NCBI GenBank assembly: GCA_963712745.1
Contig: CAVQJC010000006.1
Location: 341,133 to 405,132 of the forward strand
DNA length: 64,000 nt
Source of the DNA: an uncultured Chloroflexia bacterium
Lineage (GTDB): Bacteria; Chloroflexota; Limnocylindria; Limnocylindrales; CSP1-4
Direction of reading: 5' to 3'
This document shows, one piece after another, positions 43,170 to 58,415 of this stretch (position 1 is the first letter of the stretch; each line of letters opens with the position of its first letter). A program made the translations under genes and the position numbers. The notes below the pieces were generated by a model that was not told the origin of the DNA, searched no databases, and saw nothing but the letters and a program-made list of their open reading frames with translations.

Positions 43170-44690
43170 CTAGATCTGCACCAGGGCCGTGGCGGCCGCC
43201 TCGGTCCACTCGAGGATGGCGCCGGTCACCGGCGGGAACAGGCCGATGAGGATGACCATCGCTGCGGCCAGGGCCAGGCCGGCCTTGGTGATGCCGCCGA
43301 TGGTGACCTCCGGCGCTTCGTCAGCCGGCTTGCGCATGTACATGTAGACGACCACGCGCAGGTAGTAGAAGGCGGCCATGGCGGCGTTGAGCATCATGAT
43401 CACCGCCAGTAGCGTCATGCCCCCGCCCACTTCGAGGGCGCTGAGGACCACGGTCATCTTGGCGAAGAAGCCGGCCAGCGGTGGGATGCCCACCAGCGAC
43501 AGCAGGAACACGGTCATGGCCAGGGCCAGCACCGGAGCGCGATAGCCCAGGCCGGTGAAGGTCGAGATCTGGCTGGTCACACCGGGGCGTCGCTGCAGCG
43601 CAGCCACTACCGCGAACGCACCCAGGTTCATGAAGGCGTAGGCCACGCTGTAGAAGAGCACAGCCTGTACGCCCGAGGACGCGACCTGTAGGTCGTCCGC
43701 GGTGGCGAAGACCACCAGGCCGACCATGATGTAGCCGGTGTGCGCGATGGAGCTGTAGGCCAGCATGCGCTTGATGTTGTCCTGGCCCAGCGCGGCCAGG
43801 TTGCCCACGGTCATGGTGACGGCCGCGAGCACGCCGACGACCAGGGCCCACTCGCCGCGCAGCGGGCCCAGCGCCTCTACGAAGATGCGCAGGATGAGCG
43901 CGAAAGCGGCGATCTTGGGGCCCACCGAGAGGTAGCCCGTGACCGGAGTGGGCGAGCCCTGGTAGGCGTCCGGGGTCCAGTAGTGGAAGGGCACCGCGGC
44001 GATCTTGAAGAGCACGCCGACCGCCAGCAGGGCCAGGGCCATGGCCAACGCCAGGGGGATCGGCTCGCCGCCCTCGAGCACGCCCTCGAGCGCGGCTGCG
44101 ACCGCCCCCAGCTGGGTTGAGCCGGTGAAGCCCAGGACGAAGGCCAGGCCGAAGAGCAGGATGGCGCTGGAGAACGAACCCAGCAGGAAGTACTTGATGG
44201 CACCCTCGGTCGAGAGCCCGTCGCGCTTGGCCAGGGCCGCGAGGATGTAGCCCGGCAGCACCAGCAGCTCCAGCCCGATGAAGAGGATAAGCAGGTCCTG
44301 GCCGCCGGCGATGAGCATGCCGCCGCTGACCGCGAAGAGCAGCGTGACCGTGAACTCGGCCAGCGGCAGCTTGCGCGGTACGAGGTAGTCGGGCGCGAAC
44401 AGCAGCGTCAGCAGGCCGATGGAGATGAGCACGACATCGAGCAGGGCCGTCAGCAGGTCGCGGGTGTAGAGCGCCGGGTCGCCTACGGACTGGGCCTCGC
44501 TCAGCGCGCCGAAGTCCCAGGGCATGGGCCCGATAGCCAGTGTCGCCACCAGGGCCAGCAAGAGGCCGCCCACGCCGAGCGACATGAGCAACTCGTCGCG
44601 CCGGGGCCAGAAGAGGTCGGCCAGCAGGACCGTGATGGCCAGCAGGACGATCAGCGTGAAGGGCAGCAAGGCCAGCACTTCGCTGCTCAC
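43170..44690 (-). CDS. nuoN: NADH-quinone oxidoreductase subunit N
   Basis: EGAIKYFLLGS, FKIAAVPFHYWTPDAYQGSP, KRMLAYSSIAH. Confidence 0.97.
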   Translation of the reverse strand: MSSEVLALLPFTLIVLLAITVLLADLFWPRRDELLMSLGVGGLLLALVATLAIGPMPWDFGALSEAQSVGDPALYTRDLLTALLDVVLISIGLLTLLFAPDYLVPRKLPLAEFTVTLLFAVSGGMLIAGGQDLLILFIGLELLVLPGYILAALAKRDGLSTEGAIKYFLLGSFSSAILLFGLAFVLGFTGSTQLGAVAAALEGVLEGGEPIPLALAMALALLAVGVLFKIAAVPFHYWTPDAYQGSPTPVTGYLSVGPKIAAFALILRIFVEALGPLRGEWALVVGVLAAVTMTVGNLAALGQDNIKRMLAYSSIAHTGYIMVGLVVFATADDLQVASSGVQAVLFYSVAYAFMNLGAFAVVAALQRRPGVTSQISTFTGLGYRAPVLALAMTVFLLSLVGIPPLAGFFAKMTVVLSALEVGGGMTLLAVIMMLNAAMAAFYYLRVVVYMYMRKPADEAPEVTIGGITKAGLALAAAMVILIGLFPPVTGAILEWTEAAATALVQI

Positions 44691-46252
44691 GGCAGCAACC
44701 CCGCGGTGGTCTCGGCGACGGTCTCGGCCGCATCGTCGACGATGACCAGGATCTCTGTCACCGGCATCGCGATGAGATCGAGGACCAGCGCCGGGAAGAG
44801 GCCCAGCACGACCGTCAGCAGCACCAGCGGCGCCAGCGTCGCGGCCTCCATCTTGCTGACGTCGGTGAGCCTGTCACCGAGGCCCTTCAGGAAGTCGCTG
44901 ACGTCGCCCATGATGGTGTTCTGGACCATGTACAGCAGGTACACCGCCGCGAAGATGATGGTGAACGCGGCGATGTAGCCCACCATCGGCTCCCATCTGA
45001 CGGAGCCCAGCAGGACCAGGAACTCGCCCACGAAACCGGCCAGGCCGGGCAGGCCTGCCGAGGCCAGGCTGAAGAAGACCATCAGCGTGGCGAACACGGG
45101 GACACGCTGGCCGAGGCCGCTCATCTTGGCGATGGTGCGGTCGTGCGTGCGCTCGTAGATGACGCCGACGAGAAGGAAGAGGGCGCCGGTGATGACGCCG
45201 TGGGCGACCATCTGGAAGAGCGCGCCCTGCACGCCCTGCTCGTTGAAGACGAAGATGCCCAGTGTCACGAAGCCCATGTGGCTGACCGAGGAGTAGGCGA
45301 TGAGGCGCTTGAGGTCGGGCTGGCGGATGGCCACGACGGCCCCGTAGAGCATGCCGATGATCGAGAGCGCGATGATGAACGGAGCAAGATCGACCGCCGC
45401 ATCGGGGAAGAGCGGCAGGTTCATGCGGATGAGCCCGTAGCCACCGAGCTTCAGCAGCACGCCCGCGAGGATGACCGAGCCGGCTGTGGGCGCCTCGGTA
45501 TGGGCGTCGGGCAGCCAGGTGTGCACCGGCCACATCGGGACCTTGATGGCGAAGGCCAGGAAGAAGCCCAGGAAGGCCCAGAACTGGAGCGTCGGATCGA
45601 AGCCGAACTCGACCAACTTGGTGTAGTCGAAGGCGCCCGCCCAGGGGTCTGCCGCGCCCAGCGCCACTTGTGCCTGGTAGTAGCTCCAGGCGATGGCCAG
45701 GATGGCGATGAGCATCAGCAGCGAGCCCACCAGGGTGTAGATGACGAACTTGATGGTGGCGTAGATGCGATTGGCGCCGCCCCAGATGCCGATGATGAGA
45801 TACATCGGTACGAGCACCACTTCCCAGAAGACGTAGAAGAGGAAGAGGTCGAGGCTGAGGAAGACGCCGAGCATGCCCACCTCGAGCACGAGGAAGGCGA
45901 TCATGTACTCCTTCACCCGCGTCTGGATCGGGCCGAAGGAGGCCAGGATGCTGATCGAGGTCAGCAGCGTCGTGAGCAGGACGAGTACCAGGCTGATGCC
46001 GTCCACGCCGACCTTGTACTGGATGCCGAAGAAGCCGATCCAGTCGACCGTCTGCACCAGCTGGAAGCCCGCCTGGTCGTTGTCAAAGCCAAGGGCCACC
46101 AACAGCGAGATGGCGAAGGCGACCAGCGAGATGGCGAAGGCGCCCCAGCGGTGTATGTCCACGCGCCGGTTGGGCACGAAGAGCAGGATCAACGCGCCGA
46201 CCAGCGGCGTGAAGATGAGCAGCGAGAGCAGGTCCAGCCGGCCGAGGTCCAT
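44687..46252 (-). CDS. nuoM: NADH-quinone oxidoreductase subunit M
   Basis: FYVFWE, AIKVPMWPVHTWLPDAHTEAP, KRLIAYSSVSHMG. Confidence 0.97.
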   Translation of the reverse strand: MDLGRLDLLSLLIFTPLVGALILLFVPNRRVDIHRWGAFAISLVAFAISLLVALGFDNDQAGFQLVQTVDWIGFFGIQYKVGVDGISLVLVLLTTLLTSISILASFGPIQTRVKEYMIAFLVLEVGMLGVFLSLDLFLFYVFWEVVLVPMYLIIGIWGGANRIYATIKFVIYTLVGSLLMLIAILAIAWSYYQAQVALGAADPWAGAFDYTKLVEFGFDPTLQFWAFLGFFLAFAIKVPMWPVHTWLPDAHTEAPTAGSVILAGVLLKLGGYGLIRMNLPLFPDAAVDLAPFIIALSIIGMLYGAVVAIRQPDLKRLIAYSSVSHMGFVTLGIFVFNEQGVQGALFQMVAHGVITGALFLLVGVIYERTHDRTIAKMSGLGQRVPVFATLMVFFSLASAGLPGLAGFVGEFLVLLGSVRWEPMVGYIAAFTIIFAAVYLLYMVQNTIMGDVSDFLKGLGDRLTDVSKMEAATLAPLVLLTVVLGLFPALVLDLIAMPVTEILVIVDDAAETVAETTAGLLP

Positions 46253-48315
46253 CAGCGGGCCATCAGGATGAAGAGGGTGGCGATGACGATGAGCCCGAGG
46301 GCGATGCCCAGGGCGTAGTTCTGGACGCGGCCGGTCTGGATGTGGCGGACGCCGTCACCGACCGACGTGGTCACCGAGCCCACACCGTTGACGATGCCGT
46401 CGATGATCCTGACGTCGAACCACATGATGCCGTTGGCGACCTTGCCTCCGAAGCGGTAGAAGATGAGGTCGTTGAGGTCGTCGAAGTACCACTTGTTGTA
46501 GGAGGCGGTGTAGAGCAACCGGGTCAGGCGGTTGCGTCCGGCGATGGCATCGACCTCATCGAGCCGTGCCTTCAGGTTGAAGAAACCGAAGAACCAGATG
46601 CCCACGGCGATGCCGACCGAGGCCACCACGACGGAGGCCAGGATGAGCGCGCCATCGATACCGAAGATGAGGTACTCGTGGTCGTGGATCTCCATGATCC
46701 TCTCGGCCGGCGCGAAGATCGGCTCCAACCAGCTGAAGATGACCGAGTCGCCCAGTGGCGTGCCGATGACGATGCCCAGCAGGACCGTCGGGATGGCCAG
46801 CAGGATGAGCGGGGTGGTCATCGAGCGTGGCGACTCGTGGATCTTGGGCTCGACCTCGGGATCCACGTGGCTCTGGCCGTAGAACGTCTTGCCCATCAGC
46901 CGGAACATGTAGAAGCCGGTCATGCCGGCCACGATGAGCCCCACGATGAACACCGGCCCGTAGCCGAAGATGAACGACTCGCCCAGGATGGCGTCCTTGG
47001 AGAAGAAGCCGGCCAGCGGCGGGATGCCCGACAGCGAGAGCGCAGCGATGAGGAAGGTCCAGTGGGTGATGGGGATCTTCTTGCGCAGCGCCCCCATCTT
47101 GTCCATGTCCTGCTCCTCGTGGACCGCGTGGATGACCGAGCCCGAGCCCAGGAAGAGCAGGCCCTTGGTGAAGCCGTGGGCCATGAGGTGGAAGATGGCC
47201 GCCACCCACGCGCCTACGCCAAGGGCCGCGAACATGTAGCCCAGCTGGGAGAGCGTGGAGTAGGCCAGGACTCTCTTGATGTCCTTCTGGGTCAGCGCGA
47301 TCGACGCCGCCAGGATGGCCGTGAAGATGCCGATGCTGGCCACCAGCAGCATCGTCTCCGGCGCCAGCGCGAAGATGGGCGAGGTGCGCGCGATGAAATA
47401 GACGCCGGCGTTGACCATGGTCGCGGCATGGATGAGCGCGGACACCGGGGTGGGGCCCTCCATCGCGTCCGGCAGCCAGACGTGGAAGGGGAACTGGGCG
47501 GACTTGCCGGCAGCACCCACGAACAGCAGCAGGATGACGGCATCGACGATCCACCACTCGGTCTCCGACCAGGGCATGATCTCGAACGACTGGAGCACGT
47601 TCATCGTGCCCGTGATGAGGAACACGCCCATGATGCCGATGAGGAAGCCATGGTCGGCCACGCGGTTGACCAGGAAGGCCTTCTTCGACGCCAGCGCCGG
47701 GGCTCGCCGCTTGTACCAGAAGCCGATGAGCAGGTAGCTTGACAGGCCCACCAGCTCCCAGGCCGCGAAGATGACCAGGTAGCTGTCGGCCATGACCAGC
47801 AGCAGCATGCTGAACATGAACAGGTTGAGGTAGGCGAAGAAGCGCCACTTGGCGTCGTCGTGCTCCATGTAGCCGATGCTGTAGATGTGCACCAGCGAGC
47901 CGATCCAGGTGACCACGATGAGCATCACCGCGGTGAGGTTGTCGAAGAGGAATCCGAACTCGACCTGCAAGTCGCCGACCGGGATCCAGGTGTAGACGGT
48001 GAAGCCCCAGCGCGCGTTCTCGCTGCCCAGCGCCCCGAAGCCCAGCGTGTCCGCGATGTCGGGATAAAGCGCCGCGAATGCCAGCAGCGTGGCGATGAAG
48101 GCCGAGATGAGCACGGCGCTGATGGAGATGATCCAGGGCCGCCGACCCAGACGCCGGCCTACGAGGCCCGTCAGCAGGAAGCCGATGAGGGGGACGAACA
48201 GCACCAGCAGGACTGCCAATGACTGCGCATCCGTGGCCGCCGCCAGCTGCAGTGCTTCCTCGGCGGCCTCACTGCCATGCTCGGCAGCGGCCTCGGCGTT
48301 GAAGATGAGGTCCAT
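46252..48315 (-). CDS. nuoL: NADH-quinone oxidoreductase subunit L
   Basis: GKSAQFPFHVWLPDAMEGPTPVSALIHAATMV, QTGRVQNY. Confidence 0.97.
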   Translation of the reverse strand: MDLIFNAEAAAEHGSEAAEEALQLAAATDAQSLAVLLVLFVPLIGFLLTGLVGRRLGRRPWIISISAVLISAFIATLLAFAALYPDIADTLGFGALGSENARWGFTVYTWIPVGDLQVEFGFLFDNLTAVMLIVVTWIGSLVHIYSIGYMEHDDAKWRFFAYLNLFMFSMLLLVMADSYLVIFAAWELVGLSSYLLIGFWYKRRAPALASKKAFLVNRVADHGFLIGIMGVFLITGTMNVLQSFEIMPWSETEWWIVDAVILLLFVGAAGKSAQFPFHVWLPDAMEGPTPVSALIHAATMVNAGVYFIARTSPIFALAPETMLLVASIGIFTAILAASIALTQKDIKRVLAYSTLSQLGYMFAALGVGAWVAAIFHLMAHGFTKGLLFLGSGSVIHAVHEEQDMDKMGALRKKIPITHWTFLIAALSLSGIPPLAGFFSKDAILGESFIFGYGPVFIVGLIVAGMTGFYMFRLMGKTFYGQSHVDPEVEPKIHESPRSMTTPLILLAIPTVLLGIVIGTPLGDSVIFSWLEPIFAPAERIMEIHDHEYLIFGIDGALILASVVVASVGIAVGIWFFGFFNLKARLDEVDAIAGRNRLTRLLYTASYNKWYFDDLNDLIFYRFGGKVANGIMWFDVRIIDGIVNGVGSVTTSVGDGVRHIQTGRVQNYALGIALGLIVIATLFILMAR

Positions 48316-48321
48316 CTGCCG

Positions 48322-48633
48322 CTACTCCTTCATCGACGTGTACTCGTCCACGAGCGGCGTCCTGCGGTTGCGGTAGATGGCGATGACGATGGCCAGGCCG
48401 ACCGTGGCCTCACCGGCCGCCAGCGCGATGATGAACAGCGCGATCGTGCTGGCCTGCGCGGCGAACTCGGGCGTGAAGGCCCCGAAGGCGATGATGGCCA
48501 GGTTGACCGCGTTGAGCATCAGCTCGATGGACATGAGCATGGCGATGGCATTGCGGCGGGCCAGGAAGCCGAACGTGCCGATGCCGAAGAGCAGCACCGA
48601 CAGGATGAGGTAGGCCTCGAGCGACTGGCTCAT
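48322..48633 (-). CDS. nuoK: NADH-quinone oxidoreductase subunit K
   Basis: RRNAIAMLMSIELMLNAVN, AAGEATVGLA. Confidence 0.97.
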   Translation of the reverse strand: MSQSLEAYLILSVLLFGIGTFGFLARRNAIAMLMSIELMLNAVNLAIIAFGAFTPEFAAQASTIALFIIALAAGEATVGLAIVIAIYRNRRTPLVDEYTSMKE

Positions 48634-49211
48634 GCCTTGCTCTCTTCGTCGCGCATGGCCGTGCGCGGGTTGTTGGTCTCGGGCATGTCGTCGTCGCGCT
48701 TGGCCAGGTAGAGCCCGCCGATGACGCCGGCCAGCAGCAGCACACCCAGGGCCAGGAACGCGAGCATGTAGTCGTTGAACAGGGTCAAGGCGATGTCACG
48801 GGCCTCGGCTACCTGTACCTGCGCAGTCGCGTCCCATTCGGTCAGCAGGATGGTCGTGGCCATGAGCAGCACGAGCACCATGGCAGCCAGTGCCCCGGCC
48901 CACCATTGACGGTTGAAGACGAGCCTGGCGGGACCACGCTTGGACTGCGTGATCATGACCGCGAAGAGGATGAGCACCGCGATCGCGCCCACGTACACCA
49001 GTACCTGGCTGATGGCCATGAAGGCGCTGCCGAGCAGGCCGTAGATGCCGGCCAGAGCGGCGAATGACAGGATGAGCCAGAGCGCCGAGCGGATGATGTC
49101 CCGCCCCAGCACGACGAGCAGCGCCGAGCCCAGCATCACGCCGGCCAGCAGCAGGAAGATCAGGTCATCCCAGCGCCAGTCGAGATACGGGACCGTCCCC
49201 GGTAGCTCCAC
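48630..49211 (-). CDS. nuoJ: NADH-quinone oxidoreductase subunit J
   Basis: QVLVYVGAIAVLILFAVM. Confidence 0.95.
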   Translation of the reverse strand: MELPGTVPYLDWRWDDLIFLLLAGVMLGSALLVVLGRDIIRSALWLILSFAALAGIYGLLGSAFMAISQVLVYVGAIAVLILFAVMITQSKRGPARLVFNRQWWAGALAAMVLVLLMATTILLTEWDATAQVQVAEARDIALTLFNDYMLAFLALGVLLLAGVIGGLYLAKRDDDMPETNNPRTAMRDEESKA

Positions 49212-49232: not shown

Positions 49233-51836
49233 CTACTTGTGGTGGACCGATGCTCCGCCACCCGCGGATGCTCCGGCGGTGGTGTCGTTGGAGCCGCTTA
49301 CCGTGCTGCGGCTCCCCTGGCCGTTGCCCGCCAGTCCCGGCGGCAGCATGGGCAGCAGCTGCTCGCTCGGGATGTCACGGCCGTCGGCCTGAGCCCGGGC
49401 CAGCCAGTCGCGCTCGCGGCGGACGTAGCTGAGCTCGGTGTCGCGATCCATGTCGGCCAGCGCGATGAGGTCGATCTGCGGCTCCGAGCGCGACTCATGG
49501 GCCAGTTCGAAGTCGGGCCCACAGCGCAGCGCGTCGTAGGGGCAGGCATCGACGCAGATGCCGCAGAGGATGCAGCGCGACTCGTCGACCTCGTACTTCT
49601 CCAGCACGCGCGGCTTGGGCATGAGCGCGCCGGTGGGGCACGTCTCGGCGCAGCGGCCACAGGAGACGCAGGGCGTGGTGTTCAGGCTCATGTCCAGCGG
49701 CGTCGTCACCAGCGTGTCGAAGCCGGTGCGCATGAAGTCGTAGCAGGCTGCGCCCACGACCTCACGGCAGACGTTGGCACAGCGGCCGCAGTCGATGCAG
49801 CGCGAGGGCTCGCGCAGGATGAAGGCGTGGCTGTCGTCGCGGATGTAGTCGTGGTTGTAACCCGTGAAGCGGTTCTCGTTCACCGAGCGCACCGACAGGC
49901 CCGTGCGCTTGGGCTGCAGCGTGGAGAGCGTGGTGCCGTACTCGATGCCCTGGCGGCGCAGGTCGCAGTAGCCGATGGCTTCACAGGTGCACTGCAGGCA
50001 GCGCGCCGATTCGGCCATGGCTTCTTCCTGCGTGTAGGGGATCTCGTACTCGATGTAGGAGTCGTTGCGCTCCTCGGCCGGCATGGCCTTGAGCCGGATC
50101 CGAGGCTCCTTGACCTCTCCGGTGTAGGGCACGATGGAGAGGAACTCGGGCTGCGGCTCGGCCAGCGTCTGGCGGGTCCGGATCTCGTCGAGGTCCTGGC
50201 CCTGGAGGTAGGCGTCGATGGCGTAGCTGGCGCGCCGACCCTCGGCGATGGCCTCCACCACGGTGGCCGCGCCGGTGCGCACGTCGCCGGCCCCGAACAC
50301 ACCCTTGCGCCCGGTGCCGAAGGTGACCGCGTCAGCGTCCAGCCGCCAGCGCTTGGTCTTCTCGACGCCGTCCGCTCCGTTTTCAAGCCAGCCCATCTCC
50401 GGGCCCTGGCCGATGGCCAGCAGCACCCGGTCGCAGTCGATGATGAACTCGGTGCCCTCCACCGGCTGTGGCCGGCGGCGGCCCGAGGCGTCCGGCTCAC
50501 CCAGCGCCATGCGCTGGAACTCCACACCGGTGACCTTGTTGTCCTCCCCGGTGACGATGCGAGTCGGTGACGCCTGGAAGATGGCGCGGGCGCCCTCCTC
50601 GAGCATCTCGTGGACCTCGTCGGCCGCAGGCATGTCCTTCATGTCGCGGCGGTAGACCAGCGTGGTCTCGGTGCAGCCCTGCCGCACCGACGTGCGCGAG
50701 CAGTCCATGGAGCTGAAGCCGCCACCGATGACCACCACGCGCGTGCCCTTGTGGCCGGGGTAGGGCAGACCCAGCGTGGCCACGCGCAGGTACTCGAGCG
50801 CATCGATGACGCCGTCCGCGTCCTCGCCGGGGATGCCCAGCTTGTTCGTGTCGTAGCAGCCGATGGCCACGAGGACCGCGTCGAAGCCTTCGTTCTGGAG
50901 ATCGTCGATGGTGAAGTCCACGCCCAGCTCCGCACCGCTGACGAGCCTGGCGCCGAGGCTCCACACCGCCTCGTACTCGGCTTCGAGCACCTCTGCCTTG
51001 GGCAGGCGGTACTGGGGGATGCCGTAGCGGAGCATGCCGCCCGGCTCAGGGTCGCGTTCGTAGACGGTCACGGCGTGGCCGTTGAGCGAGAGGTAGTAGG
51101 CCGCCGACATGCCGGCCGGGCCGGAGCCGATGACGGCCACGCGCTTGCCGGTAGCGGGCTGCTGGTCGAAGGGCAGCGGCGGCTTGGCGCCGGCCGCCTG
51201 GGCCTTGAGCACCTGGTCGCCTGCGTAGCGGTGGCTGTCGCGGATGGCGATGGCCTCCTCCACCTCGTCACGGCGGCAGTGCTCCTCGCAGGGTGCTGGG
51301 CAGACTCGGCCGAGCACTGACGGGAACGGGATGGTGCGCTTGAACACGCGCGCCGACTCCACGAAGTCGCCCTCGGTGTTGGCCTTGAGGAAGCCCGGGA
51401 TGTCGATGTGGCTGGGGCACTTGTTCTGGCAGGGCGGCAGGCAGTAGGCGTTGTGGTCCGAGAAGATGAGCTCGAGGTTCGTCTTGCGGATCTCCCGCAG
51501 CCGCGGCGTTTGCGTACGCACGACCATGCCCTCTTCCGCCTCGCGCGAGCAGGAGATGGGTGGTGCGTCCTCGCCCTCGACCTCGACCACGCACATGCGG
51601 CAGGCACCGAAGCCGGGCAGCTTGGGCTCGTAGCAGAGGGTGGGCACCTCGATGCCCTGGTCGCGGCAGACGTCGAGGATGGTCTGGCCGGCGCGGCCGG
51701 TGTACTGCTTCCCGTCGATCTCGATAGTGAACTCGGGCGCAGCCAGACGGCGCTGTGGCGACTGGGTCGCGAGCAGGCGCTCGGTGGCTTCGTCGACGGC
51801 GGGCTGGCTGCTGGTCTGGGGCAGGGTGTCGGTCAT
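49233..51836 (-). CDS. Fusion: NuoG-like 2Fe-2S N-domain + GltD/NfnB-like FAD/NAD(P)H domain + 2[4Fe-4S] ferredoxin + C-terminal half of NuoI
   Basis: PTLC..GACRMC..ISC; PPCQNKCP, GRVCPAPCEEHC, IGSGPAG, GGMLRYGIP, IGGGFSSMD, VYRR; CIDCGRCANVC, CVSCGRCAETCP; KYEVDESRCILCGICVDACPYDAL..PDFELA. Confidence 0.9.
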   Translation of the reverse strand: MTDTLPQTSSQPAVDEATERLLATQSPQRRLAAPEFTIEIDGKQYTGRAGQTILDVCRDQGIEVPTLCYEPKLPGFGACRMCVVEVEGEDAPPISCSREAEEGMVVRTQTPRLREIRKTNLELIFSDHNAYCLPPCQNKCPSHIDIPGFLKANTEGDFVESARVFKRTIPFPSVLGRVCPAPCEEHCRRDEVEEAIAIRDSHRYAGDQVLKAQAAGAKPPLPFDQQPATGKRVAVIGSGPAGMSAAYYLSLNGHAVTVYERDPEPGGMLRYGIPQYRLPKAEVLEAEYEAVWSLGARLVSGAELGVDFTIDDLQNEGFDAVLVAIGCYDTNKLGIPGEDADGVIDALEYLRVATLGLPYPGHKGTRVVVIGGGFSSMDCSRTSVRQGCTETTLVYRRDMKDMPAADEVHEMLEEGARAIFQASPTRIVTGEDNKVTGVEFQRMALGEPDASGRRRPQPVEGTEFIIDCDRVLLAIGQGPEMGWLENGADGVEKTKRWRLDADAVTFGTGRKGVFGAGDVRTGAATVVEAIAEGRRASYAIDAYLQGQDLDEIRTRQTLAEPQPEFLSIVPYTGEVKEPRIRLKAMPAEERNDSYIEYEIPYTQEEAMAESARCLQCTCEAIGYCDLRRQGIEYGTTLSTLQPKRTGLSVRSVNENRFTGYNHDYIRDDSHAFILREPSRCIDCGRCANVCREVVGAACYDFMRTGFDTLVTTPLDMSLNTTPCVSCGRCAETCPTGALMPKPRVLEKYEVDESRCILCGICVDACPYDALRCGPDFELAHESRSEPQIDLIALADMDRDTELSYVRRERDWLARAQADGRDIPSEQLLPMLPPGLAGNGQGSRSTVSGSNDTTAGASAGGGASVHHK

Positions 51837-53155
51837 GAGCGCACGGCACCTGCTAGTCGGATGGGTTGGCAGACCCCGGCAGGGCATTCACCCCGCTCGG
51901 TGTGGGCTTCGAACTCAGGCGCGAAGTATCGCATTCCCGACAGCAGCGGGTTCGAGGCGTCGGCCTCCAGGCCGCACAGCGCCGCGTCGCGGATGTCCGC
52001 CGCGAGGTCCCCCAGCAGCTGCGAGTCGCCGGGGCGCACGTGCCCGCTGCAGTAGGCGTTGCCCAGCTCGGCCAGGCGGCGCGTACCGATGCGGCAGGGG
52101 ATGGTCTTGCCGCAGGCGTTGTCGTTGAGGTATCGCGCCATGAGCGTGGCCACGTCCACCAGGCAGGCCGTCTCGTCGAGTGCCAGCAGCGTGCCTGAGC
52201 CGGCCAGCGCACCGGCCTCCCGCAAGGCGCCGAAGGTCAGGGGCGTGTCGAGCGCGTCGGGTGGCAGGAAGCCCCCGGTGGGTCCGCCGACCAGCACGGC
52301 TTTCAGCGCACCCTGCGCGGAGCCACCGCCGCCGTCGAGGATCTCACGCACCGTGGCGCCCGTGGGCACTTCCACGATGCCCGGCTTGCGGACCACGCCA
52401 CCGAGCTGCACCAGGGTCGTGCCGGGGGCCTCCGGGTCGCCCAGCGAAGCGTAGGCGCCGGCGCCGTGACTGACGATCCAGGGCACGGCCGCCAGCGTCT
52501 TGACGTTGTTGACGACCGTGGGCTTGCCCCACAGGCCTGCGCGGGATGGATAGGGCGGGCGCTGGTCGGGCTGGGCCCGGCGGTTCTCGAGCGCTCGCAA
52601 CAGCACCGTCTCCTCGCCTACCACGAAGGAGCCGCTGACCTCGCGCACCTCGATCTCGAGGTTGCGCCCGTCCTCGGTGCTGCCCAGGTAGCCGCGCTCA
52701 GAAGCCTCGTCGACGGCCGTGCGCAGGCGCTCGGCGGCGTCGGGCGCCGTGGCCGAGACGGCGATGATGGCCGACTCCGCGCCGACTGCCCAGGCCGCGA
52801 TGGCCGTGCCTTCCACGACCGCGTGCGGGTCACGCTCCATGAGCGTGCGGTCAAGCTGTGCGCCGGGGTCGGCCTCGAAGCCGTTGGCCACCACGTAGCG
52901 CACCGGCTCTGGCTGGGCGGCGCAGTCGCGCCACTTGGCGCCGGCCGGGTAGCCGGCGCCACCCCGGCCCCGCAAGCCAGACTCGCTGATCATGCTGATG
53001 ACCGCGTCGGGGCTGAGCTCGGCGGTGGCCTTGCGGAAGGCCTCCCAGGCCCCGCCCTTCTCGGCCTCGGCGACGTCGGCGACCGCGGAGTCGGCGGCAC
53101 GTGCCAGCAGCACGGATGGCCAGTCGCGCGAGCCGCTCAGGACGGGCAGGCTCAT
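51833..53155 (-). CDS. nuoF: NuoF/HydB-like flavoprotein subunit, divergent
   Basis: SGLRGRGGAGYP, DPHAVVEG, GEET, PTVVNNVKT, VGGPTGG, CGKTIPCRIG, LCGL, CPAGVC. Confidence 0.85.
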   Translation of the reverse strand: MSLPVLSGSRDWPSVLLARAADSAVADVAEAEKGGAWEAFRKATAELSPDAVISMISESGLRGRGGAGYPAGAKWRDCAAQPEPVRYVVANGFEADPGAQLDRTLMERDPHAVVEGTAIAAWAVGAESAIIAVSATAPDAAERLRTAVDEASERGYLGSTEDGRNLEIEVREVSGSFVVGEETVLLRALENRRAQPDQRPPYPSRAGLWGKPTVVNNVKTLAAVPWIVSHGAGAYASLGDPEAPGTTLVQLGGVVRKPGIVEVPTGATVREILDGGGGSAQGALKAVLVGGPTGGFLPPDALDTPLTFGALREAGALAGSGTLLALDETACLVDVATLMARYLNDNACGKTIPCRIGTRRLAELGNAYCSGHVRPGDSQLLGDLAADIRDAALCGLEADASNPLLSGMRYFAPEFEAHTERGECPAGVCQPIRLAGAVRS

Positions 53156-53991
53156 GCCGCCTCCCCCTGGGGCACGCTCGCACGCAGCGCAGCGGCGATG
53201 GTGGCCGCGTCCTCCGCGCTCGACTTGGGCAGGGGCTCGCCGTCGACCTCGACGTAGGCACTGCCGGACGAGGTGCCACCGCACTCGGTGGTGTCGAGGC
53301 GGACCGCCCCGTCAGGGCTGACGCCGCCGATGTCAGTGCCGAGGTGCTCGCGGAACGCGGCCAGGACGCGCCCGCCACCCAGCAGCGTGCACTGCGTGCA
53401 GCGGCAGACACGCACGATGTGGCCGACCGGCGGCTCGAAGTGCAGGTGCGGGTAGGACGTGGCCACGCCGTAGAGCTCGCTGTAGTTGGCCCCCGTCTGG
53501 TGGGCGATATGCTGCAGCGCCGCCACCGGCAGGTGCCCGTACGCACCCTGGGTCTGCTCCAGGATGGCCAGCGCCCGCCTGGGCTTGTAGCCCTCCGCTG
53601 CGAGGATCTCGTCGAGCGGGCCGAGGTCGATGGGCTCGAACGGATCGAACATGCGGTCGGGCACGCTGCGGCCGGAACGCCGCAAGGCCGACTCTTCTCG
53701 CCGCTCGGCGTACTGCTCCGCGGCGCCCCAATGGACGTGGTAGCGGTCGCGTGTGTCGACACCGCCCATGTCGATGCATTCGATGGGGCAGGCCTGGGCG
53801 CACTGGAAACAGGTCTCGCACTTGAGCGTGCCGGCCTCGTCGTAGAGCAGGATGAGCCGGCCCCGGTGACGCGGAGAGATGTCGTTGACGACCTCGGGGT
53901 AGCGCACCGTGAGGTTGGGGCGGAAGACCTGCCGGACGGCGAAGACGATGCCCTTGACGATGGCCAGGCCGGGGATCCGCTCGGTCCTCAC
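53152..53991 (-). CDS. Fusion: N-terminal half of NuoI + NuoE-like domain
   Basis: TVRYPE...PRHRGR...KCETCFQCAQACPIECI (NuoI-N), then LEQTQGAYGHLP, YGVATSY, VRVCRCTQC, ECGG (NuoE); GTG overlaps the nuoH stop. Confidence 0.88.
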   Translation of the reverse strand: MRTERIPGLAIVKGIVFAVRQVFRPNLTVRYPEVVNDISPRHRGRLILLYDEAGTLKCETCFQCAQACPIECIDMGGVDTRDRYHVHWGAAEQYAERREESALRRSGRSVPDRMFDPFEPIDLGPLDEILAAEGYKPRRALAILEQTQGAYGHLPVAALQHIAHQTGANYSELYGVATSYPHLHFEPPVGHIVRVCRCTQCTLLGGGRVLAAFREHLGTDIGGVSPDGAVRLDTTECGGTSSGSAYVEVDGEPLPKSSAEDAATIAAALRASVPQGEAA

Positions 53992-55382
53992 GAGAGATAC
54001 TCCGTGATGATGATGATGGCGCCGGCGGTGACGAAGATGTTCAGCAGGGCGGCCGGCATCAGCCACTTCCAGGCGAAGTTCATCATCTGATCGATCCGTA
54101 CGCGCGGGTATGTCGCGCGCATCAGCACGAACAGCGCGACCAGGGCGAACGACTTGCCGAAGAACCAGAGGATGCCCATGAGGGCCTCGAAGCTGAGCAG
54201 GGCCCAGAGGCTGACCAGCGCGCCTACCAGGAGGTTGGCCAGCAGGAAGCCCACCAGCAGCGACTTGATGACGCCCCACGAGGACTTGACCATCCAGACC
54301 AGGCCTGCCAGTGCCAGCGTCAGGATGGGCGGCACCAGCAGCGGGATGGCGATGAGCCACGGGCCCAGCGAGCCCGGTTCGATGTTGCTCATCTCGACCG
54401 GCGTGTCGATGCCGATGGCACTGAGGAACGGGTCCACGTCGATGATGCCGTGGTAGCCCCCCAGGAAGAGCGTCACCGTCAGCGCCGAGAGGATGAAGAC
54501 GTTGACGTACTCGGCGAAGAAGAAGAAGCCGAAGCGCATGCCGCTGTACTCGGTGGCGAAGCCGGCCACCAGCTCGGAATCGGCCTCGGTGTAGTCGAAG
54601 GGGGTGCGGCCGGCCTCGGCGGTGGCGGCGATGAAGAAGATGATCAGCGCCAGCGGCTGCTGCCAGGCATACCAGTTCCAGATGCCGCCGCCCTGGTTCT
54701 CCACGATCTGGCCCAGGTTGAGGGTGCCGGCCAGTAGGACCACGCCGAAGGTGCCCAGGATGAGCGGCAGCTCGTAGCTGATGACCGCGGCCGCGGCGCG
54801 GATGCCGCCCAGCAGCGAGTACTTGTTGAAGCTGGACCAGCCGGCCATCATCAGGCCCACCACGCCCAGGCCCGAGGCCGCGAAGAAGTAGAGCAGCCCG
54901 AGCTCCATCTGGTAGCCGATCATGCCCGGGGCGAAGGGGATGACCAGCAGCGTCAGGACCGAGGCCAGGAAGGTCACCGCGGGGGCCAGGGTGAAGACCG
55001 GTACGTCCACGCCTCTTGGCGTGTAGTCCTCCTTGGAAAGCACCTTCAGCCCCGCCATCAGCGAGGCCAGCGTGCCCCACGGGCCGGTGCGGTCCGGCCC
55101 CACGCGCAGGTTCATCTGCGCGATGATCTTGAGCTCCATGTAGATGATCACGAACGCCGCGGGGACCGTGAACAGGAGCACGCCGGTGGCAGCCGCGACG
55201 AAGCGCAGGATCTCGATGTTGGCCTCGCCGGTGTCGATGACCCAGTCGGTGACGGTGCTGCCGATGCCGGTCACCCACAGGAGGGTGGCACCCAGCATGG
55301 CCACCAGGATGATGGCTACCAGCGGCAGGATGATCTTGCCCGCGAGCGACAGGCGGTTCCAGGGGTTGCTCGCTGCGGTCAC
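53988..55382 (-). CDS. nuoH: NADH-quinone oxidoreductase subunit H (extended, 464 aa)
   Basis: RVGPDRTGP, NKYSLLGG, ISYE, AEAGRTPFD..EADSELVAG..EYSG, RATYPRVRIDQ. Confidence 0.96.
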   Translation of the reverse strand: MTAASNPWNRLSLAGKIILPLVAIILVAMLGATLLWVTGIGSTVTDWVIDTGEANIEILRFVAAATGVLLFTVPAAFVIIYMELKIIAQMNLRVGPDRTGPWGTLASLMAGLKVLSKEDYTPRGVDVPVFTLAPAVTFLASVLTLLVIPFAPGMIGYQMELGLLYFFAASGLGVVGLMMAGWSSFNKYSLLGGIRAAAAVISYELPLILGTFGVVLLAGTLNLGQIVENQGGGIWNWYAWQQPLALIIFFIAATAEAGRTPFDYTEADSELVAGFATEYSGMRFGFFFFAEYVNVFILSALTVTLFLGGYHGIIDVDPFLSAIGIDTPVEMSNIEPGSLGPWLIAIPLLVPPILTLALAGLVWMVKSSWGVIKSLLVGFLLANLLVGALVSLWALLSFEALMGILWFFGKSFALVALFVLMRATYPRVRIDQMMNFAWKWLMPAALLNIFVTAGAIIIITEYLS

Positions 55383-56603
55383 TTGTCGATCCCGCCCATG
55401 ATGGGATCCAGGCTGGCCATGATGGCCATGAGGTCGGCCAGCACCTGACCCTGCGACAGCGGCGTGACCGCCTGCAGGTTGAAGAACGAGGGGTCGTGGA
55501 TGCGGAAGCGGAAGGGCTGGTCGGAGCCGTCGCTCACGGCATAGGCGGCGTACTGCCCGCGCGGGGACTCGAGCGCCGCGAAGGCCCGGCCCGGCGGGAT
55601 GCGCAGTAGCCGCGGCAGCTTGGCCATGACCGGCCCGTCGGGCATCTGGTGCAGGACCTGGTCGATGATGCGCAGCGACTGCTTGATCTCGTCGATGTGA
55701 AGCAGATAGCGTGCGTAGGAATCGCCATCGGTTCGCACCGGGATGTCGAAGTCCAGCTCCGGATAGACGCTGTAGGGATGGGCCCGACGCACGTCATAGG
55801 GCACGCCCGTGGCCCGCAACGGTGGTCCCGACATGCTCAGGCGCAGGGCCATGTCGCGGTCGACCACGCCCAGTCCCTTGGTCCGGTTGACGAAGATCTC
55901 GTTCTCGTTCATGAGCGTGGCCTGGTCGTTGATGCGGGCGGCGGCGCGGCCCATCCAATCGCCCAGGCGGCTCAGGAATTCGTGGTTGAGGTCACCGTTC
56001 ACGCCGCCGATGCGCATGTAGTTGAAGAGCAGCTTCTGGCCTGTCAGCGCCGCCAGCATCTCCACGATCTCGTCGCGTTCGCCGAAGCCGTAGAGGATGG
56101 GCGTGAGGCCGCCCAGGTCTAGCGCGAGCCAGCCGATGAAGAGGGCGTGACTGGAGATGCGGTTCAGCTCCCAGGCCAGCACGCGGATGTACTCGGCCCG
56201 CCGCGGCACCTCCAGCTCGAGCAGCTTCTCCGCGGTCAGCACCGGCAACGACTCGCTGAACATGGAGGCGGCGTACTCGAGTGGGTCGGTGTTGCTGATG
56301 GCGTGATGCCAGTCGCCGTGCTCGCAGATCTTCTCCACCCCGCGGTGGAGGTAGCCCAGCACCGGATCGAGGTCGACGATCGCTCTCGCCGTCGATCTTG
56401 AGCACGACACGCAGCACGCCGTGCGTAGATGGATGCTGCGGCCCGAGGTTGATGAACATCTCGCCGTCATCGAGCTGGTAGAACTCGGCCTCGCGCTCGG
56501 TGCGCGGGGTCAGCGGCGGGATGGCGTCGTAGATGGTGGCGGGCGTCTGGACCATGACGTCCGGATCGTCCAGCGAGCGGACCTGTTCGCGGTCGGTCGT
56601 CAT
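55379..56603 (-). CDS. nuoD: NADH-quinone oxidoreductase subunit D, apparent frameshift near 56385
   Basis: N part [14 protein letters not shown]; after the shift [17 protein letters not shown]...ESPRG...DPIMGGIDK. Confidence 0.93.
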
Positions 56604-57230
56604 GCTCGCCCATCCCCGCCCTCGAGGGCGTCAGCGCCGCTGTGGCCGGCCGCGAGGCTCAGCAGCTCACCGTCGGCGCCAAGGCGGGCGCCGGCACCGG
56701 GGCTGGTGCGGATGACCGGGTCGCGTCGCACATCGCCGGGCGTGACGGGCCGCTCCATGTGGCGGATGCCCTCGCCCGGTCCGCGGGAGGCGTCGTCGGG
56801 CATGGCGAAATCCTTGCGCAGGGGGAATGCCTGGTAGTCGGGCGGCATGTAGATGCGGCGCAGGTCGCGGTTGCCCTCGAACTCGATGCCGAACATGTCG
56901 TAGGCCTCGCGCTCGGCCCACTCGGCCCCCGGCCACAGATGCGTGATGGAGGGAACGCGCGGGTCATCGCGCGAGAGGCCGTCCGCGATGACGCGCAGCC
57001 AGTCGGACGAAAGCGGGCTCCACAGGTGATAGGCGACCTGCATGGTCAGGCCGGTATCGACGCCGCAGAGGTCGGCCAGCAGCTCGAAGCCGAGGTCCCC
57101 GTCCTCGCGCAGGGTTCGCATGACCTCTGACAGGTCAGCCGGGCGGATCGACCAGCTCGATGGTGTCGCCCATGGCTTCGGCGGGCACCACCAGACGATC
57201 GCCGAGGCGGTCGTCGAGCAGGCGTTGCAT
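56600..57230 (-). CDS. nuoC: NADH-quinone oxidoreductase subunit C, apparent frameshift near 57150
   Basis: [36 protein letters not shown]; the N-terminus MQRLLDD... lies in the adjacent frame. Confidence 0.9.
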
Positions 57231-57258: not shown

Positions 57259-57942
57259 CTAGACGCCCTCGGGCACGGTGGGGCCGACCTTGCGATCCTT
57301 CCACTGGCCACGGCGTTCGAGAACGAGCTGCTGCAGTCTGAGCATGCCGTAGATGAGGCCCTCCGGCCGGGGCGGGCAGCCGGGGACGTAGACGTCGACG
57401 GGCATGATGCGGTCGATGCCCTCGACCGTGGAGTAGGACCGCTTGTAGCGACCACCCGAGCAGGTGCAGTCGCCCATGGCCACGCACCACTTGGGCTCGG
57501 GCATCTGCTCCCACAGCCGGATGAGCGGGCCGGCCATCTTGGTGGTCAGGGTGCCGGCCACGATGAGCACGTCCGCCTGCCGCGGACTGGCGCGGAAGGG
57601 GAACATGTTGAAGCGGTCCATGTCGTTGACCACGGTGGCGGCCGACATCATCTCCATGGCGCAGCAGGCCAGGCCCGACAGCAGCGGCCAGAGGCTGTTG
57701 GCCCGCAGATAGTCGAGCAGCAGGTCGGCGGTGGTGGGCACCACGTCGAGCGCGCCCCAGCGGCCGTTGTCGCCCTTCTCGGCGAACTCAAGCTCCTTGA
57801 GGTGGTCGATGCTCGCGGGCTGGCCGGCGTAGGCCTCCGGGTCGGCCGGAACCCAGGTCGTGTTGGGCAGCACGATCGTGCCGGGCTTGCGCTCGGTCCT
57901 GGTCAGCGCGTCCTGGCCCTCAGCAGGCTTCTTCACTTCCAT
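57259..57942 (-). CDS. nuoB: NADH-quinone oxidoreductase subunit B
   Basis: GLACCAMEM, RASPRQAD, AMGDCTCSGG, VDVYVPGCPPRPE. Confidence 0.97.
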   Translation of the reverse strand: MEVKKPAEGQDALTRTERKPGTIVLPNTTWVPADPEAYAGQPASIDHLKELEFAEKGDNGRWGALDVVPTTADLLLDYLRANSLWPLLSGLACCAMEMMSAATVVNDMDRFNMFPFRASPRQADVLIVAGTLTTKMAGPLIRLWEQMPEPKWCVAMGDCTCSGGRYKRSYSTVEGIDRIMPVDVYVPGCPPRPEGLIYGMLRLQQLVLERRGQWKDRKVGPTVPEGV

Positions 57943-58295
57943 GTCAGCAGGCCCTTCTTGGCCGCGTACAACACCGACAGCTCCATGATGCCCACGAAGA
58001 CGAGCATGCCCACGAACCCGCCCACCAGAACATCGTCGAAGACGAGCGCCCACAGGGCGATGAAGACGACCTCGATGTCGAAGGCCACGAACAGCAGGGC
58101 GTAGAGGTAGAAGGAGAGCCCGAAGCGGCCGCGGGTGTCGCCGTAGGTGTCGATGCCCGACTCGTAGGGCAACCCCTTGTGCTCGTCGCCCTTGTGCCGG
58201 TGAGAGATGAACCAGGCCAGACCGATGGTCAGGAATACGAAGCTGAACCCCGCGATCACGAAGCCGAGCACGTACCAGATCGGAGCGGTCAACAC
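57933..58295 (-). CDS. nuoA: NADH-quinone oxidoreductase subunit A
   Basis: PYESG, FYLYALLFVAFDIE, KKGLLTW. Confidence 0.95.
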   Translation of the reverse strand: MLTAPIWYVLGFVIAGFSFVFLTIGLAWFISHRHKGDEHKGLPYESGIDTYGDTRGRFGLSFYLYALLFVAFDIEVVFIALWALVFDDVLVGGFVGMLVFVGIMELSVLYAAKKGLLTWK

Positions 58296-58415
58296 TTCCC
58301 TCGATCAAGAGCCGTATGGTCAGGCGCCCGCAAACCCGAAGCGGCGCTTCGGAAATGACACGAGCGCGGGTGGATGTTACCGCAGCAAGCCGTTGCTCCA
58401 TGTGACACTGCGGTC

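Follow-up and report, generated by a model that had tools for sequence, protein, structure and literature searches.

A stretch of 64,000 nucleotides of contig CAVQJC010000006.1 (positions 341,133 to 405,132; assembly GCA_963712745.1, an uncultured Chloroflexia bacterium), hereafter called the window, contains a flavoprotein gene, designated Z, among genes for respiratory complex I. The G+C content of the window is about 69%, and the coordinates given below are positions in it. The analysis of open reading frames (ORFs) and of Pfam and NCBIfam matches showed that Z belongs to a single minus-strand operon of 13 genes, which runs from 58295 down to 43170 in the order nuoA-nuoB-nuoC-nuoD-nuoH-I'-E-F-Z-nuoJ-nuoK-nuoL-nuoM-nuoN, I'-E being one fusion gene. 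The complex I subunits A, B, C, D, H, I, J, K, L, M, and N are co-encoded in this operon, NuoI only as two halves. Start and stop codons overlap at three junctions: nuoH/I'-E (GTGA), I'-E/F (ATGA), and F/Z (ATGA). The genes and the parts of the fusion gene are as follows:

57933..58295, minus strand: nuoA; ORF with collinear tblastn matches in related loci, single copy in the genome
57259..57870, minus strand: nuoB; Pfam Oxidored_q6, 2.5e-26; C-terminal part of ORF 57259..58401, start codon not fixed
56600..57205, minus strand: nuoC; Pfam Complex1_30kDa, 2.2e-38; start codon not fixed
55379..56603, minus strand: nuoD; NCBIfam NuoD; two frames in the window, extra base near 56382-56383
53988..55382, minus strand: nuoH; Pfam NADHdh, 6e-98
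53152-53991, minus strand: I'-E fusion gene, whole, 279 amino acids; GTG start overlapping the nuoH TGA
53722..53991, minus strand: first half of NuoI, at the N-terminus of I'-E; TIGR01971 positions 1-66 of 121, E 1.5e-11
53152..53640, minus strand: NuoE/StnA-like part of I'-E; Pfam 2Fe-2S_thioredx, 3.6e-24; best solved match StnA
51833..53155, minus strand: F, NuoF/StnB-core flavoprotein, 440 amino acids; Pfam Complex1_51K, SLBB, NADH_4Fe-4S
49233..51836, minus strand: Z, whole gene, 867 amino acids; Pfam, NCBIfam, and solved-structure matches; ATGA overlap with F
48630..49211, minus strand: nuoJ; Pfam Oxidored_q3, 2.1e-32
48322..48633, minus strand: nuoK; ORF with collinear matches in related loci
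46252..48315, minus strand: nuoL; ORF with collinear matches in related loci
44687..46252, minus strand: nuoM; ORF with collinear matches in related loci
43170..44690, minus strand: nuoN; ORF with collinear matches in related loci

The ORF of Z covers 49233..51887. As an in-frame ATG at 51836 overlaps the stop codon of F, the gene occupies 49233-51836, which is exactly the interval of the original prediction. The latter had described Z as a GltD/NfnB-type flavoprotein in place of NuoG, with a 2Fe-2S N-domain of the NuoG/HydA type, a His-ligated cluster motif interrupted by a complete GltD-like domain, and a pair of [4Fe-4S] clusters behind it, lacking the molybdopterin-like C-domain. The features of Z found by us are:

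51507..51734, minus strand: 2Fe-2S domain (N1b / StnC C4 type), Z residues 35-110; Pfam Fer2_4, 1.9e-21
51414..51455, minus strand: junction 1, Z residues 128-141, NuoG H-x3-C followed by GltD C-x3-CP; PF10588 positions 1-17
50193..51443, minus strand: GltD/NfnB-type domain, Z residues 132-548, with the Fe-S part, the FAD (flavin adenine dinucleotide) motif GSGPAG, the NADPH motif GGGFSSMD, and VYRR; Fer4_20, Pyr_redox_2
49959..50051, minus strand: junction 2, Z residues 596-626, GltD N-terminal helix and C-x2-C followed by NuoG C-x5-C; Fer4_20, PF10588 (in the homologue from locus L106)
49623..49820, minus strand: 2x[4Fe-4S] ferredoxin-like domain of the NuoG/HydA type, Z residues 673-738; Fer4_Nqo3, Fer4_7; aligned with StnC
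49467..49610, minus strand: second half of NuoI, Z residues 743-790, with the second hairpin strand, CxxCxxCxxxCP, and an F-E motif; TIGR01971 positions 71-115, E 1.6e-11

In the numbering of P0001, which equals the Z numbering plus 17, the Pfam domains were Fer2_4 at 52-127, Fer4_20 at 149-228, Pyr_redox_2 at 249-550, Fer4_Nqo3 at 690-755, and Fer4 at 765-788. The Fer2_4 match confirmed the 2Fe-2S N-domain, and the Pfam scan found no molybdopterin domain in Z, as predicted. The motifs SDHNAYC, RCLQCTCEAIGYC, IGSGPAG, IGGGFSSMD, and LVYRR are all present in the translation. Only profile positions 1-17 of PF10588 (NADH-G_4Fe-4S_3) match Z, at 134-150 in the P0001 numbering, and the remaining positions 18-40 match after the flavin domains in the L106 homologue, at residues 598-620. 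As the two halves of PF10588 flank the flavin domains, the His-cluster motif of NuoG is truly interrupted. The inserted GltD domain is not complete in the simple sense, however, since its Fe-S domain is permuted: positions 27-110 of Fer4_20 precede the flavin domains of Z, and an isolated piece after them matches positions 7-30 (including RCLQC; E 5e-4), all Cys residues being present. As read from these motifs, two cluster motifs are interleaved, and the Fe-S domain of GltD type has undergone circular permutation around its own flavin domains. Junction 1 is invariant in Z, and the spacing in StnC, the large subunit of the Sporomusa ovata transhydrogenase StnABC, is identical in the alignment; we therefore regard permutation and interleaving as a family trait. 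The predicted [4Fe-4S] pair was found too, although the flavin domains are followed by three CxxCxxCxxxC motifs rather than two, the third being the second half of NuoI.

Of the 81 aligned sequences, 80-81 keep the Cys and His residues of the cluster motifs, far above chance; these include C68, C79, C82, and C96 of the 2Fe-2S domain and C613, C616, C618, and C624 of junction 2. The GltD-type domain scored 540 bits with NF009454 and matched NfnB (4ylf_B) at 4.9e-78. Its GxGxxG, GGGxxxxD, and YRR motifs are invariant or nearly so in 34 sequences and match those of StnC and 9bov_A. We take the YRR of GltD/NfnB proteins to bind the 2'-phosphate of NADPH. An AlphaFold2 model of Z, built from a 34-row alignment, had a mean predicted local distance difference test (pLDDT) value of 61.2; it was good at residues 200-555, with values mostly above 80 for the GltD domain. 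Two parts of Z outside the listed domains were also seen, namely a conserved N-terminal extension, ERLL.TQSPQR (51737-51836), and, behind the NuoI half, a C-terminal helix (E801...RDW...) with an unconserved low-complexity tail of Gly, Ser, and Ala following it (49233-49466).

Kinship of the E-F-Z module with Stn and Nfn-Bfu

The three proteins I'-E, F, and Z were compared with solved structures. Residues 53-783 of Z align with 9bov_A (1.3e-165), StnC (8oh5_C, 7e-150), and NfnA (9n5u_A, 3.8e-140); in StnC, a protein of 1172 amino acids from Sporomusa ovata, residues 4-700 are covered by about 730 residues of Z. F reached 390 bits with 9bov_B and 372 with StnB versus 257 with Thermus Nqo1, and the best solved match of the NuoE-like part was StnA (8oh5_A, 2.6e-18). 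The F and E parts are thus closer to StnB and StnA than to NuoF and NuoE of complex I. The canonical models of the N-module all stayed below their cut-offs: TIGR01973 (NuoG) at 92.5 versus 470.05 bits, TIGR01959 (NuoF) on F at 346.2 versus 558.65 bits, and TIGR01958 (NuoE) on the NuoE part at 61.4 versus 142.4 bits.

A phylogenetic analysis was made with FastTree on 146 sequences over the shared region, Z residues 36-745; they comprised the window, six relatives, and those of at least 640 amino acids among the 150 best 50%-identity representatives. The Z-type proteins formed one clade of 11 rows (SH-like support 94; midpoint root, no bootstrap) amid long StnC-like proteins. This clade also takes in two fragments and one PorB fusion.

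The StnABC and Nfn-Bfu enzymes (8OH5/8OH9 of Sporomusa ovata; 9N5U of Thermococcus sibiricus; 9BOV) share with E-F-Z the three-subunit set of an E-like, an F-like, and a large protein. As in Z, their large subunit has a 2Fe-2S and a 2x[4Fe-4S] domain, together with a GltD/NfnL-type FAD-NADPH domain that interleaves with the His-cluster motif. Passages of the paper on StnABC describe StnC as a NuoG-like protein with an inserted GltD domain, in which NADPH and FAD feed a linear FAD-C7-C6-C5-C4-C3 chain to StnB, and place the clusters C1 and C2, in an FdhF-like domain, off the electron path (PMC10482914). Unlike StnC, Z has no FdhF-like C-terminal domain and ends about 100 residues past its third Cys motif. 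Two further positions differ from StnC in the alignment. The invariant His202 of Z (51231-51233) aligns with StnC Lys170, which is reported as a ligand of the FAD-proximal cluster (PMC12018979; numbering of PMC10482914), and Ile146 of Z (51399-51401) aligns with Cys114 of StnC in the numbering used in the passages of PMC10482914.

The losses in the other two subunits are larger. F aligns only to residues 118-526 of the 584 of StnB and 140-540 of the 599 of HydB. It therefore has neither the N-terminal 2Fe-2S/Zn domain (B2/B5) nor the C-terminal 2x[4Fe-4S] ferredoxin domain (B3/B4) of StnB. The Zn-site residues C331, H418, C424, and C429 are kept in 53-54 of 66 F sequences, as they are in the B subunits of Stn/Nfn-Bfu; the Stn paper describes, in the passages concerned, a Zn linker (PMC10482914). 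The thioredoxin-like NuoE domain is truncated in 29 of 69 sequences. The canonical fourth Cys of its 2Fe-2S site (53152-53400) is Ser in the window and is Cys in none of the 40 long forms, 37 of which have an alternative CxCxxC...C set that leaves room for some cluster. According to passages on Nfn-Bfu, the bifurcation site consists of FMN (flavin mononucleotide), B1, and C1, and the low-potential path passes through B3/B4 (PMC12018979). As three such elements are missing or degenerate in the module, ferredoxin-dependent bifurcation is very unlikely.

The N3-type motif of F, residues 348-354 (52094-52114), reads CGKTIPC. At its second Cys position, 42 of the 66 sequences have T, 16 have S, 2 have A, and 6 have C; the other three Cys residues are kept in at least 97%, and the site may hold a [3Fe-4S] or a three-Cys [4Fe-4S] cluster. 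F retains the FMN loop GLRGRGGAG as well as GEET, and its NADE motif reads NGFEAD. A one-base omission at 51955, seen in a single RNA-library contig at depth 3, was not taken as a difference in F, since the frame of the window aligns with StnB there.

The likeness of the trio to the Sporomusa transhydrogenase, noticed in the original prediction, thus stood insofar as E, F, and Z are closest to Stn/Nfn-Bfu among the solved structures; it did not extend to a complete Stn, as the cluster domains and the FdhF-like domain are lost. On this homology, the descent of the E-F-Z module from an NADPH:NAD+ transhydrogenase of the Nfn-Bfu/Stn type holds.

Three further enzymes invite comparison. The canonical complex I (NuoA-N; Nqo1-15 of Thermus thermophilus) has the same 11 subunits of the membrane arm and the quinone module in the usual order, with the N2 motifs of NuoB, which are present as CC...C...CP in the translation from the window; N1b, the His-ligated cluster, and the N4-type domain have counterparts in Z. 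Unlike it, the present enzyme has no molybdopterin-like domain and no canonical N1a, its N3 site has three Cys residues, its NuoI lies in two pieces on two polypeptides, and it has an extra FAD/NADPH domain with two more clusters. The closest published relative is Nuo-Bfu, presented in parts of Schut et al. 2022 as a predicted 14-subunit complex I with BfuABC instead of NuoEFG; it is reported for Deferribacteres, Proteobacteria, Planctomycetes, and Nitrospirae, is proposed to pass electrons of NADH and reduced ferredoxin to menaquinone, and is defined by a BfuB with all B2-B5 clusters, including the ferredoxin domain (PMC9304861). Both gene clusters have a Bfu-related E/F/G-like module in their middle, in place of the NADH module. 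The passages on Nuo-Bfu name neither a GltD/NADPH domain nor a split NuoI, both of which are features of the present operon; by the same passages, the latter also differs in its 13 genes, stripped B core, Nfn-type A subunit, and degenerate C cluster site. In Mbx-like operons, as portrayed in part of Degli Esposti 2015 (PMC4758237), a GltD-related flavoprotein replaces NuoI, so that a GltD-type NAD(P)H flavoprotein is again found on a membrane enzyme related to complex I. The Mbx type, so far as these passages go, is linked to ferredoxin or sulfur and has no NuoE or NuoF, whereas the present complex keeps a split NuoI and the full Nuo membrane arm.

NuoI in two halves

The NuoI model TIGR01971, of 121 positions, matched in two places: positions 1-66 on the N-terminus of I'-E and positions 71-115 on the C-terminus of Z, with E values of about 1e-11 each. 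Each half scored about 45 bits, as against the model cut-off of 113.05, and carries one CxxCxxCxxxCP motif. The first half comprises the N-terminal helix, TVxYPE, RGR, CxxCxxCxxxCP, and the first hairpin strand, and all 69 sequences have its Cys residues C58, C61, C64, and C68. By our reading, the break falls in the hairpin between the Cys motifs, where RYHVHW ends the first half and KYEVDESRC opens the second. This split had been overlooked in the original prediction. An assignment of the third Cys motif of Z to the FdhF-type cluster of StnC, suggested by HMMER, which pairs it with CGYCGVGC, was rejected because the spacing is CxxCxxCxxxCP and the flanks are those of NuoI positions 71-115. 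Between the two parts of I'-E, the linker of residues 80-113 (window 53650-53750; HVHWG..E.Y.ERREESA.RRSGR.VPD) is near-invariant across the class, including a distant family (f3).

A profile search of the window's own genome (84.55% complete) found no other NuoI-like gene above ferredoxin-domain noise. In five of five genomes that are 91-99% complete and belong to three families of the class, the only NuoI sequences found were two halves separated by about 4.3 kb; each of these genomes has one NuoH locus, which in one of them (G049) was read in two pieces. In the canonical operon of another Chloroflexota genome (L119), both NuoI halves map to a single gene. In relatives, one high-scoring segment pair spans the NuoI and NuoE parts of I'-E.

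To see the two halves together, residues 1-115 of I'-E and 738-830 of Z were co-folded. The score was 0.36 versus 0.01 for the best of three controls, the agreement of contacts between runs was at least 92%, and the pLDDT of the partners was at least 63. Among 80 solved complexes, 58 reached the pass mark, as did 2 of 110 mismatched pairs; the passes with scores of 0.60 or less came from only 7 of the 80 and from both of those mismatches. The co-fold lends weak support to the pairing of the halves, and the model may have drawn on memory since NuoI is solved.

A cluster of the 2x[4Fe-4S] ferredoxin fold is bound by three Cys residues of one motif and one of the other. As the clusters of this fold draw on both motifs, N6a and N6b would be bound jointly by I'-E and Z. 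On this reading of the motifs, the E-F-Z module is wired into the quinone module via N6a/N6b through the split NuoI. Fusion to both NuoI halves and encoding within the nuo operon also set the module apart from Stn. The idea that a Stn-like module was captured by complex I, put forward in the original prediction, is borne out by the position of the module in the only nuo operon, the overlapping codons, and the NuoI halves fused to E and Z.

Conservation and distribution of the operon

By their labels, the relatives of Z belong to Chloroflexota, class Limnocylindria. The locus counts given here refer to 80 listed loci, among at least 456 species-genome stretches that encode a Z relative. The label of 79 of the 80 is Chloroflex*, Limnocylindr*, or Anaerolineaceae, and that of one is Ca. 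Dormiibacterota. Up to the contig ends, all 80 share the gene order A-B-C-D-H-I'E-F-Z-J-K-L-M-N, and 48 hold all 13 queries. In these 48 loci, Z and NuoB are the most conserved subunits, with a median identity of 77.6% each; F, with 56.8%, is among the least conserved. The ratio of nonsynonymous to synonymous substitution rates (dN/dS) in seven close pairs was 0.15 for Z, 0.23 for F, 0.13 for B, and 0.28 for H. Full-length Z is present in 16 of 16 genomes of 1.0-1.4 Mb, and F is kept in genomes of that size too. In databases, Z-like proteins are named "FAD-dependent oxidoreductase", "formate dehydrogenase major subunit", or "GltD-like oxidoreductase".

A search was also made in 300 other genomes sampled from the phylum, three of them unpublished. 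Full-length I'-E was found in 15/15, 2/2, and 15/15 genomes of three Limnocylindria families; outside them, mostly the E part alone or the I part alone matched. Three other Chloroflexota families have a stand-alone nuoB-I'E-F-Z cluster (L106, 4746-9799; L107, 7969-12964; L110, where the contig ends inside Z). In these four-gene-cluster homologues from other families, the second N3 position of F is Cys. Two genomes with the four-gene cluster also have a separate nuoA-C-D-H cluster without nuoB (L117, L118), and in one such genome a canonical complex I, its nuoI intact, is encoded as well (L119). These clusters indicate that the same enzyme type also exists with scattered genes and beside a normal complex I.

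In the genome of the window, nuoA, B, C, D, H, J, and K are each present in a single copy, and the operon is the sole complex I found. The same genome (G000) has three further NuoE/NuoF/NuoG-like sets outside the window (C6:35664-39665, C11:348500-352773, and C20:547095-549795), two of them with NuoG/FdhA-like proteins of 930-966 amino acids and one with a HoxU-like protein of 241 amino acids. Two metatranscriptome runs yielded RNA-library contigs that match parts of Z, F, and nuoD/H with full identity, which is compatible with transcription; carry-over of DNA is possible.

Electron path and alternative readings

Complex I is regarded as an NADH enzyme, with ferredoxin or F420H2 as the donor in some relatives. 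To our knowledge, NADPH use by any proton-pumping complex I has been an open question since the cyanobacterial NDH-1 proved to use ferredoxin. The best explanation for the operon, to which we give a probability of roughly 0.55, is that a stripped, non-bifurcating Stn-type module sits on the sole complex I, and that the whole would act as a dual-input NAD(P)H:quinone oxidoreductase that takes electrons from NADPH at the FAD of Z.

The occupancy of the cofactors, the donors, the direction of flow, and the pumping of protons are all predicted here from sequence. NADPH would deliver a hydride to the FAD of the GltD-type domain in Z. From there, electrons would travel along the two [4Fe-4S] clusters of GltD type, the interleaved His-ligated cluster, and the ferredoxin-like clusters, all within Z, and then over N6a/N6b to N2 in NuoB and to (mena)quinone, with NuoL, M, and N pumping. 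NADH would probably enter in parallel at the FMN of F and reach the 2Fe-2S cluster of Z through the three-Cys N3-type cluster, and the shared wire could let the NADH and NADPH pools exchange electrons. As the NuoI half occupies the sequence place of the off-path FdhF branch of StnC, a dead end in Stn may have become the exit.

Several points weigh against this explanation. Input of NADH through F is uncertain because 60 of the 66 sequences have T, S, or A instead of the second N3 Cys and because NADE is altered. The genome encodes four NuoF-like proteins, among which F scores lowest with nuoF_fam (346.7 bits, cut-off 558.65). The assignment of the YRR motif to NADPH rather than NADH draws on the likeness to StnC and on background knowledge of GltD/NfnB proteins. 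In the AlphaFold2 model of Z, the pLDDT falls below 50 at residues 1-30, 123-140, 181-197, and 560-804, so that the cluster distances and the NuoI branch are not placeable. The genome of the window is incomplete to the degree given above, and it encodes the PntB transhydrogenase (C17:329434-330846), so that an extra link between NADPH and NADH is not obviously needed. Finally, nuoD is frameshifted in the window: NCBIfam NuoD positions 2-37 and 28-386 match in different frames. The probable cause is an assembly indel (56380-56385). We rejected the frameshift as a sign of a dead operon, since nuoD is one ORF in 64 of 66 relatives and two contigs, one from the DNA of run X1 and one from an RNA library (run X16), lack the base at 56382/56383.

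The strongest alternative, which we nevertheless regard as unlikely, is that NADH is the respiratory donor and the GltD domain serves mainly as an exit, the module working as a non-bifurcating NADH/NADP(H) transhydrogenase with little NADPH flux to quinone. Passages on Stn describe the same wire as joining FAD/NADPH to FMN/NAD (PMC10482914), and F, besides its intact FMN loop and GEET motif, is under purifying selection that extends to the 1.0-1.4 Mb genomes. Yet PntB is present, the higher conservation of Z than of F suggests that the key catalytic site is in Z, and on a common chain the downhill path to quinone would compete with transfer to NADP+.

The opposite possibility, that the enzyme is specific for NADPH, with F and the E part as structural relics and all electrons entering via the FAD of Z, seems to us less likely again. 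It would account for the lost N3 Cys, the NGFEAD motif, the loss of the NuoE cluster domain in 29 of 69 sequences, and the low nuoF_fam score and weak conservation of F. Against this, F is an intact ORF with its other three N3 Cys residues, Gly-rich loop, and GEET kept, its dN/dS of 0.23 and its retention in streamlined genomes speak for function, and an aerobic heterotroph without a pumping NADH dehydrogenase would be unusual.

That the complex runs mainly in reverse and makes NADPH, the proton motive force driving quinol electrons up to the FAD of Z and onto NADP+, was the second option of the original prediction and is improbable: complex I is reversible in principle and an NADP(H) site is predicted in Z, but forward respiration must also depend on the sole complex I of the genome, and PntB weakens the need for this route to NADPH. 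The view that the nuo operon merely houses the E-F-Z genes, and that their product is a soluble, bifurcating transhydrogenase of the Stn/Nfn-Bfu type that depends on ferredoxin, can practically be set aside, since, although its best solved homologues are the subunits of StnABC and NfnABC, the domain content already contradicts it: F has no B2/B5 or B3/B4 domains, the C1 site is degenerate or absent, the NuoI halves are fused to E and Z with no other NuoI found by the profile search, and Z has no FdhF-like domain, the deletion of which in Stn, according to passages of PMC10482914, blocked the purification of an active complex.

The dual-input reading, with NADPH entering at Z, can be taken one step further. 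The Limnocylindria would then have, class-wide, a complex I whose main entry is an NADPH-oxidising GltD-type subunit, plugged in by a split NuoI that shares N6a/N6b, and such a half-ferredoxin plug may be a general way of docking; we rate this proposal a little below even odds. If true, it would be the first true NADPH:quinone complex I, and the plug, with NuoI cut in its central hairpin and the halves placed on two subunits, would be unprecedented. Our searches in the main texts of open-access papers and bioRxiv preprints turned up no account of a complex I that combines a GltD/Stn-type subunit with a split NuoI, and none of complex I in Limnocylindria. The operon is a concrete candidate for an NADPH-using complex I, having an FAD/NADPH site of the StnC type and being the sole complex I of hosts across a class of soil and freshwater bacteria, some with streamlined genomes of about 1 Mb. 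When the metabolism of these abundant Chloroflexota is reconstructed, their complex I is probably scored as having no NuoG and no NuoI.

A soluble bifurcating module that was stripped down and fused onto a respiratory complex would also illustrate the splitting of a ferredoxin-fold subunit as a principle of evolution and protein engineering. A further member of the Z clade, P0199 (1049 amino acids), is Z-like, has the third Cys motif, and is fused at its C-terminus to a PorB-type domain (2-oxoacid:ferredoxin oxidoreductase beta), which suggests that the half-ferredoxin plug has been reused on other enzymes.

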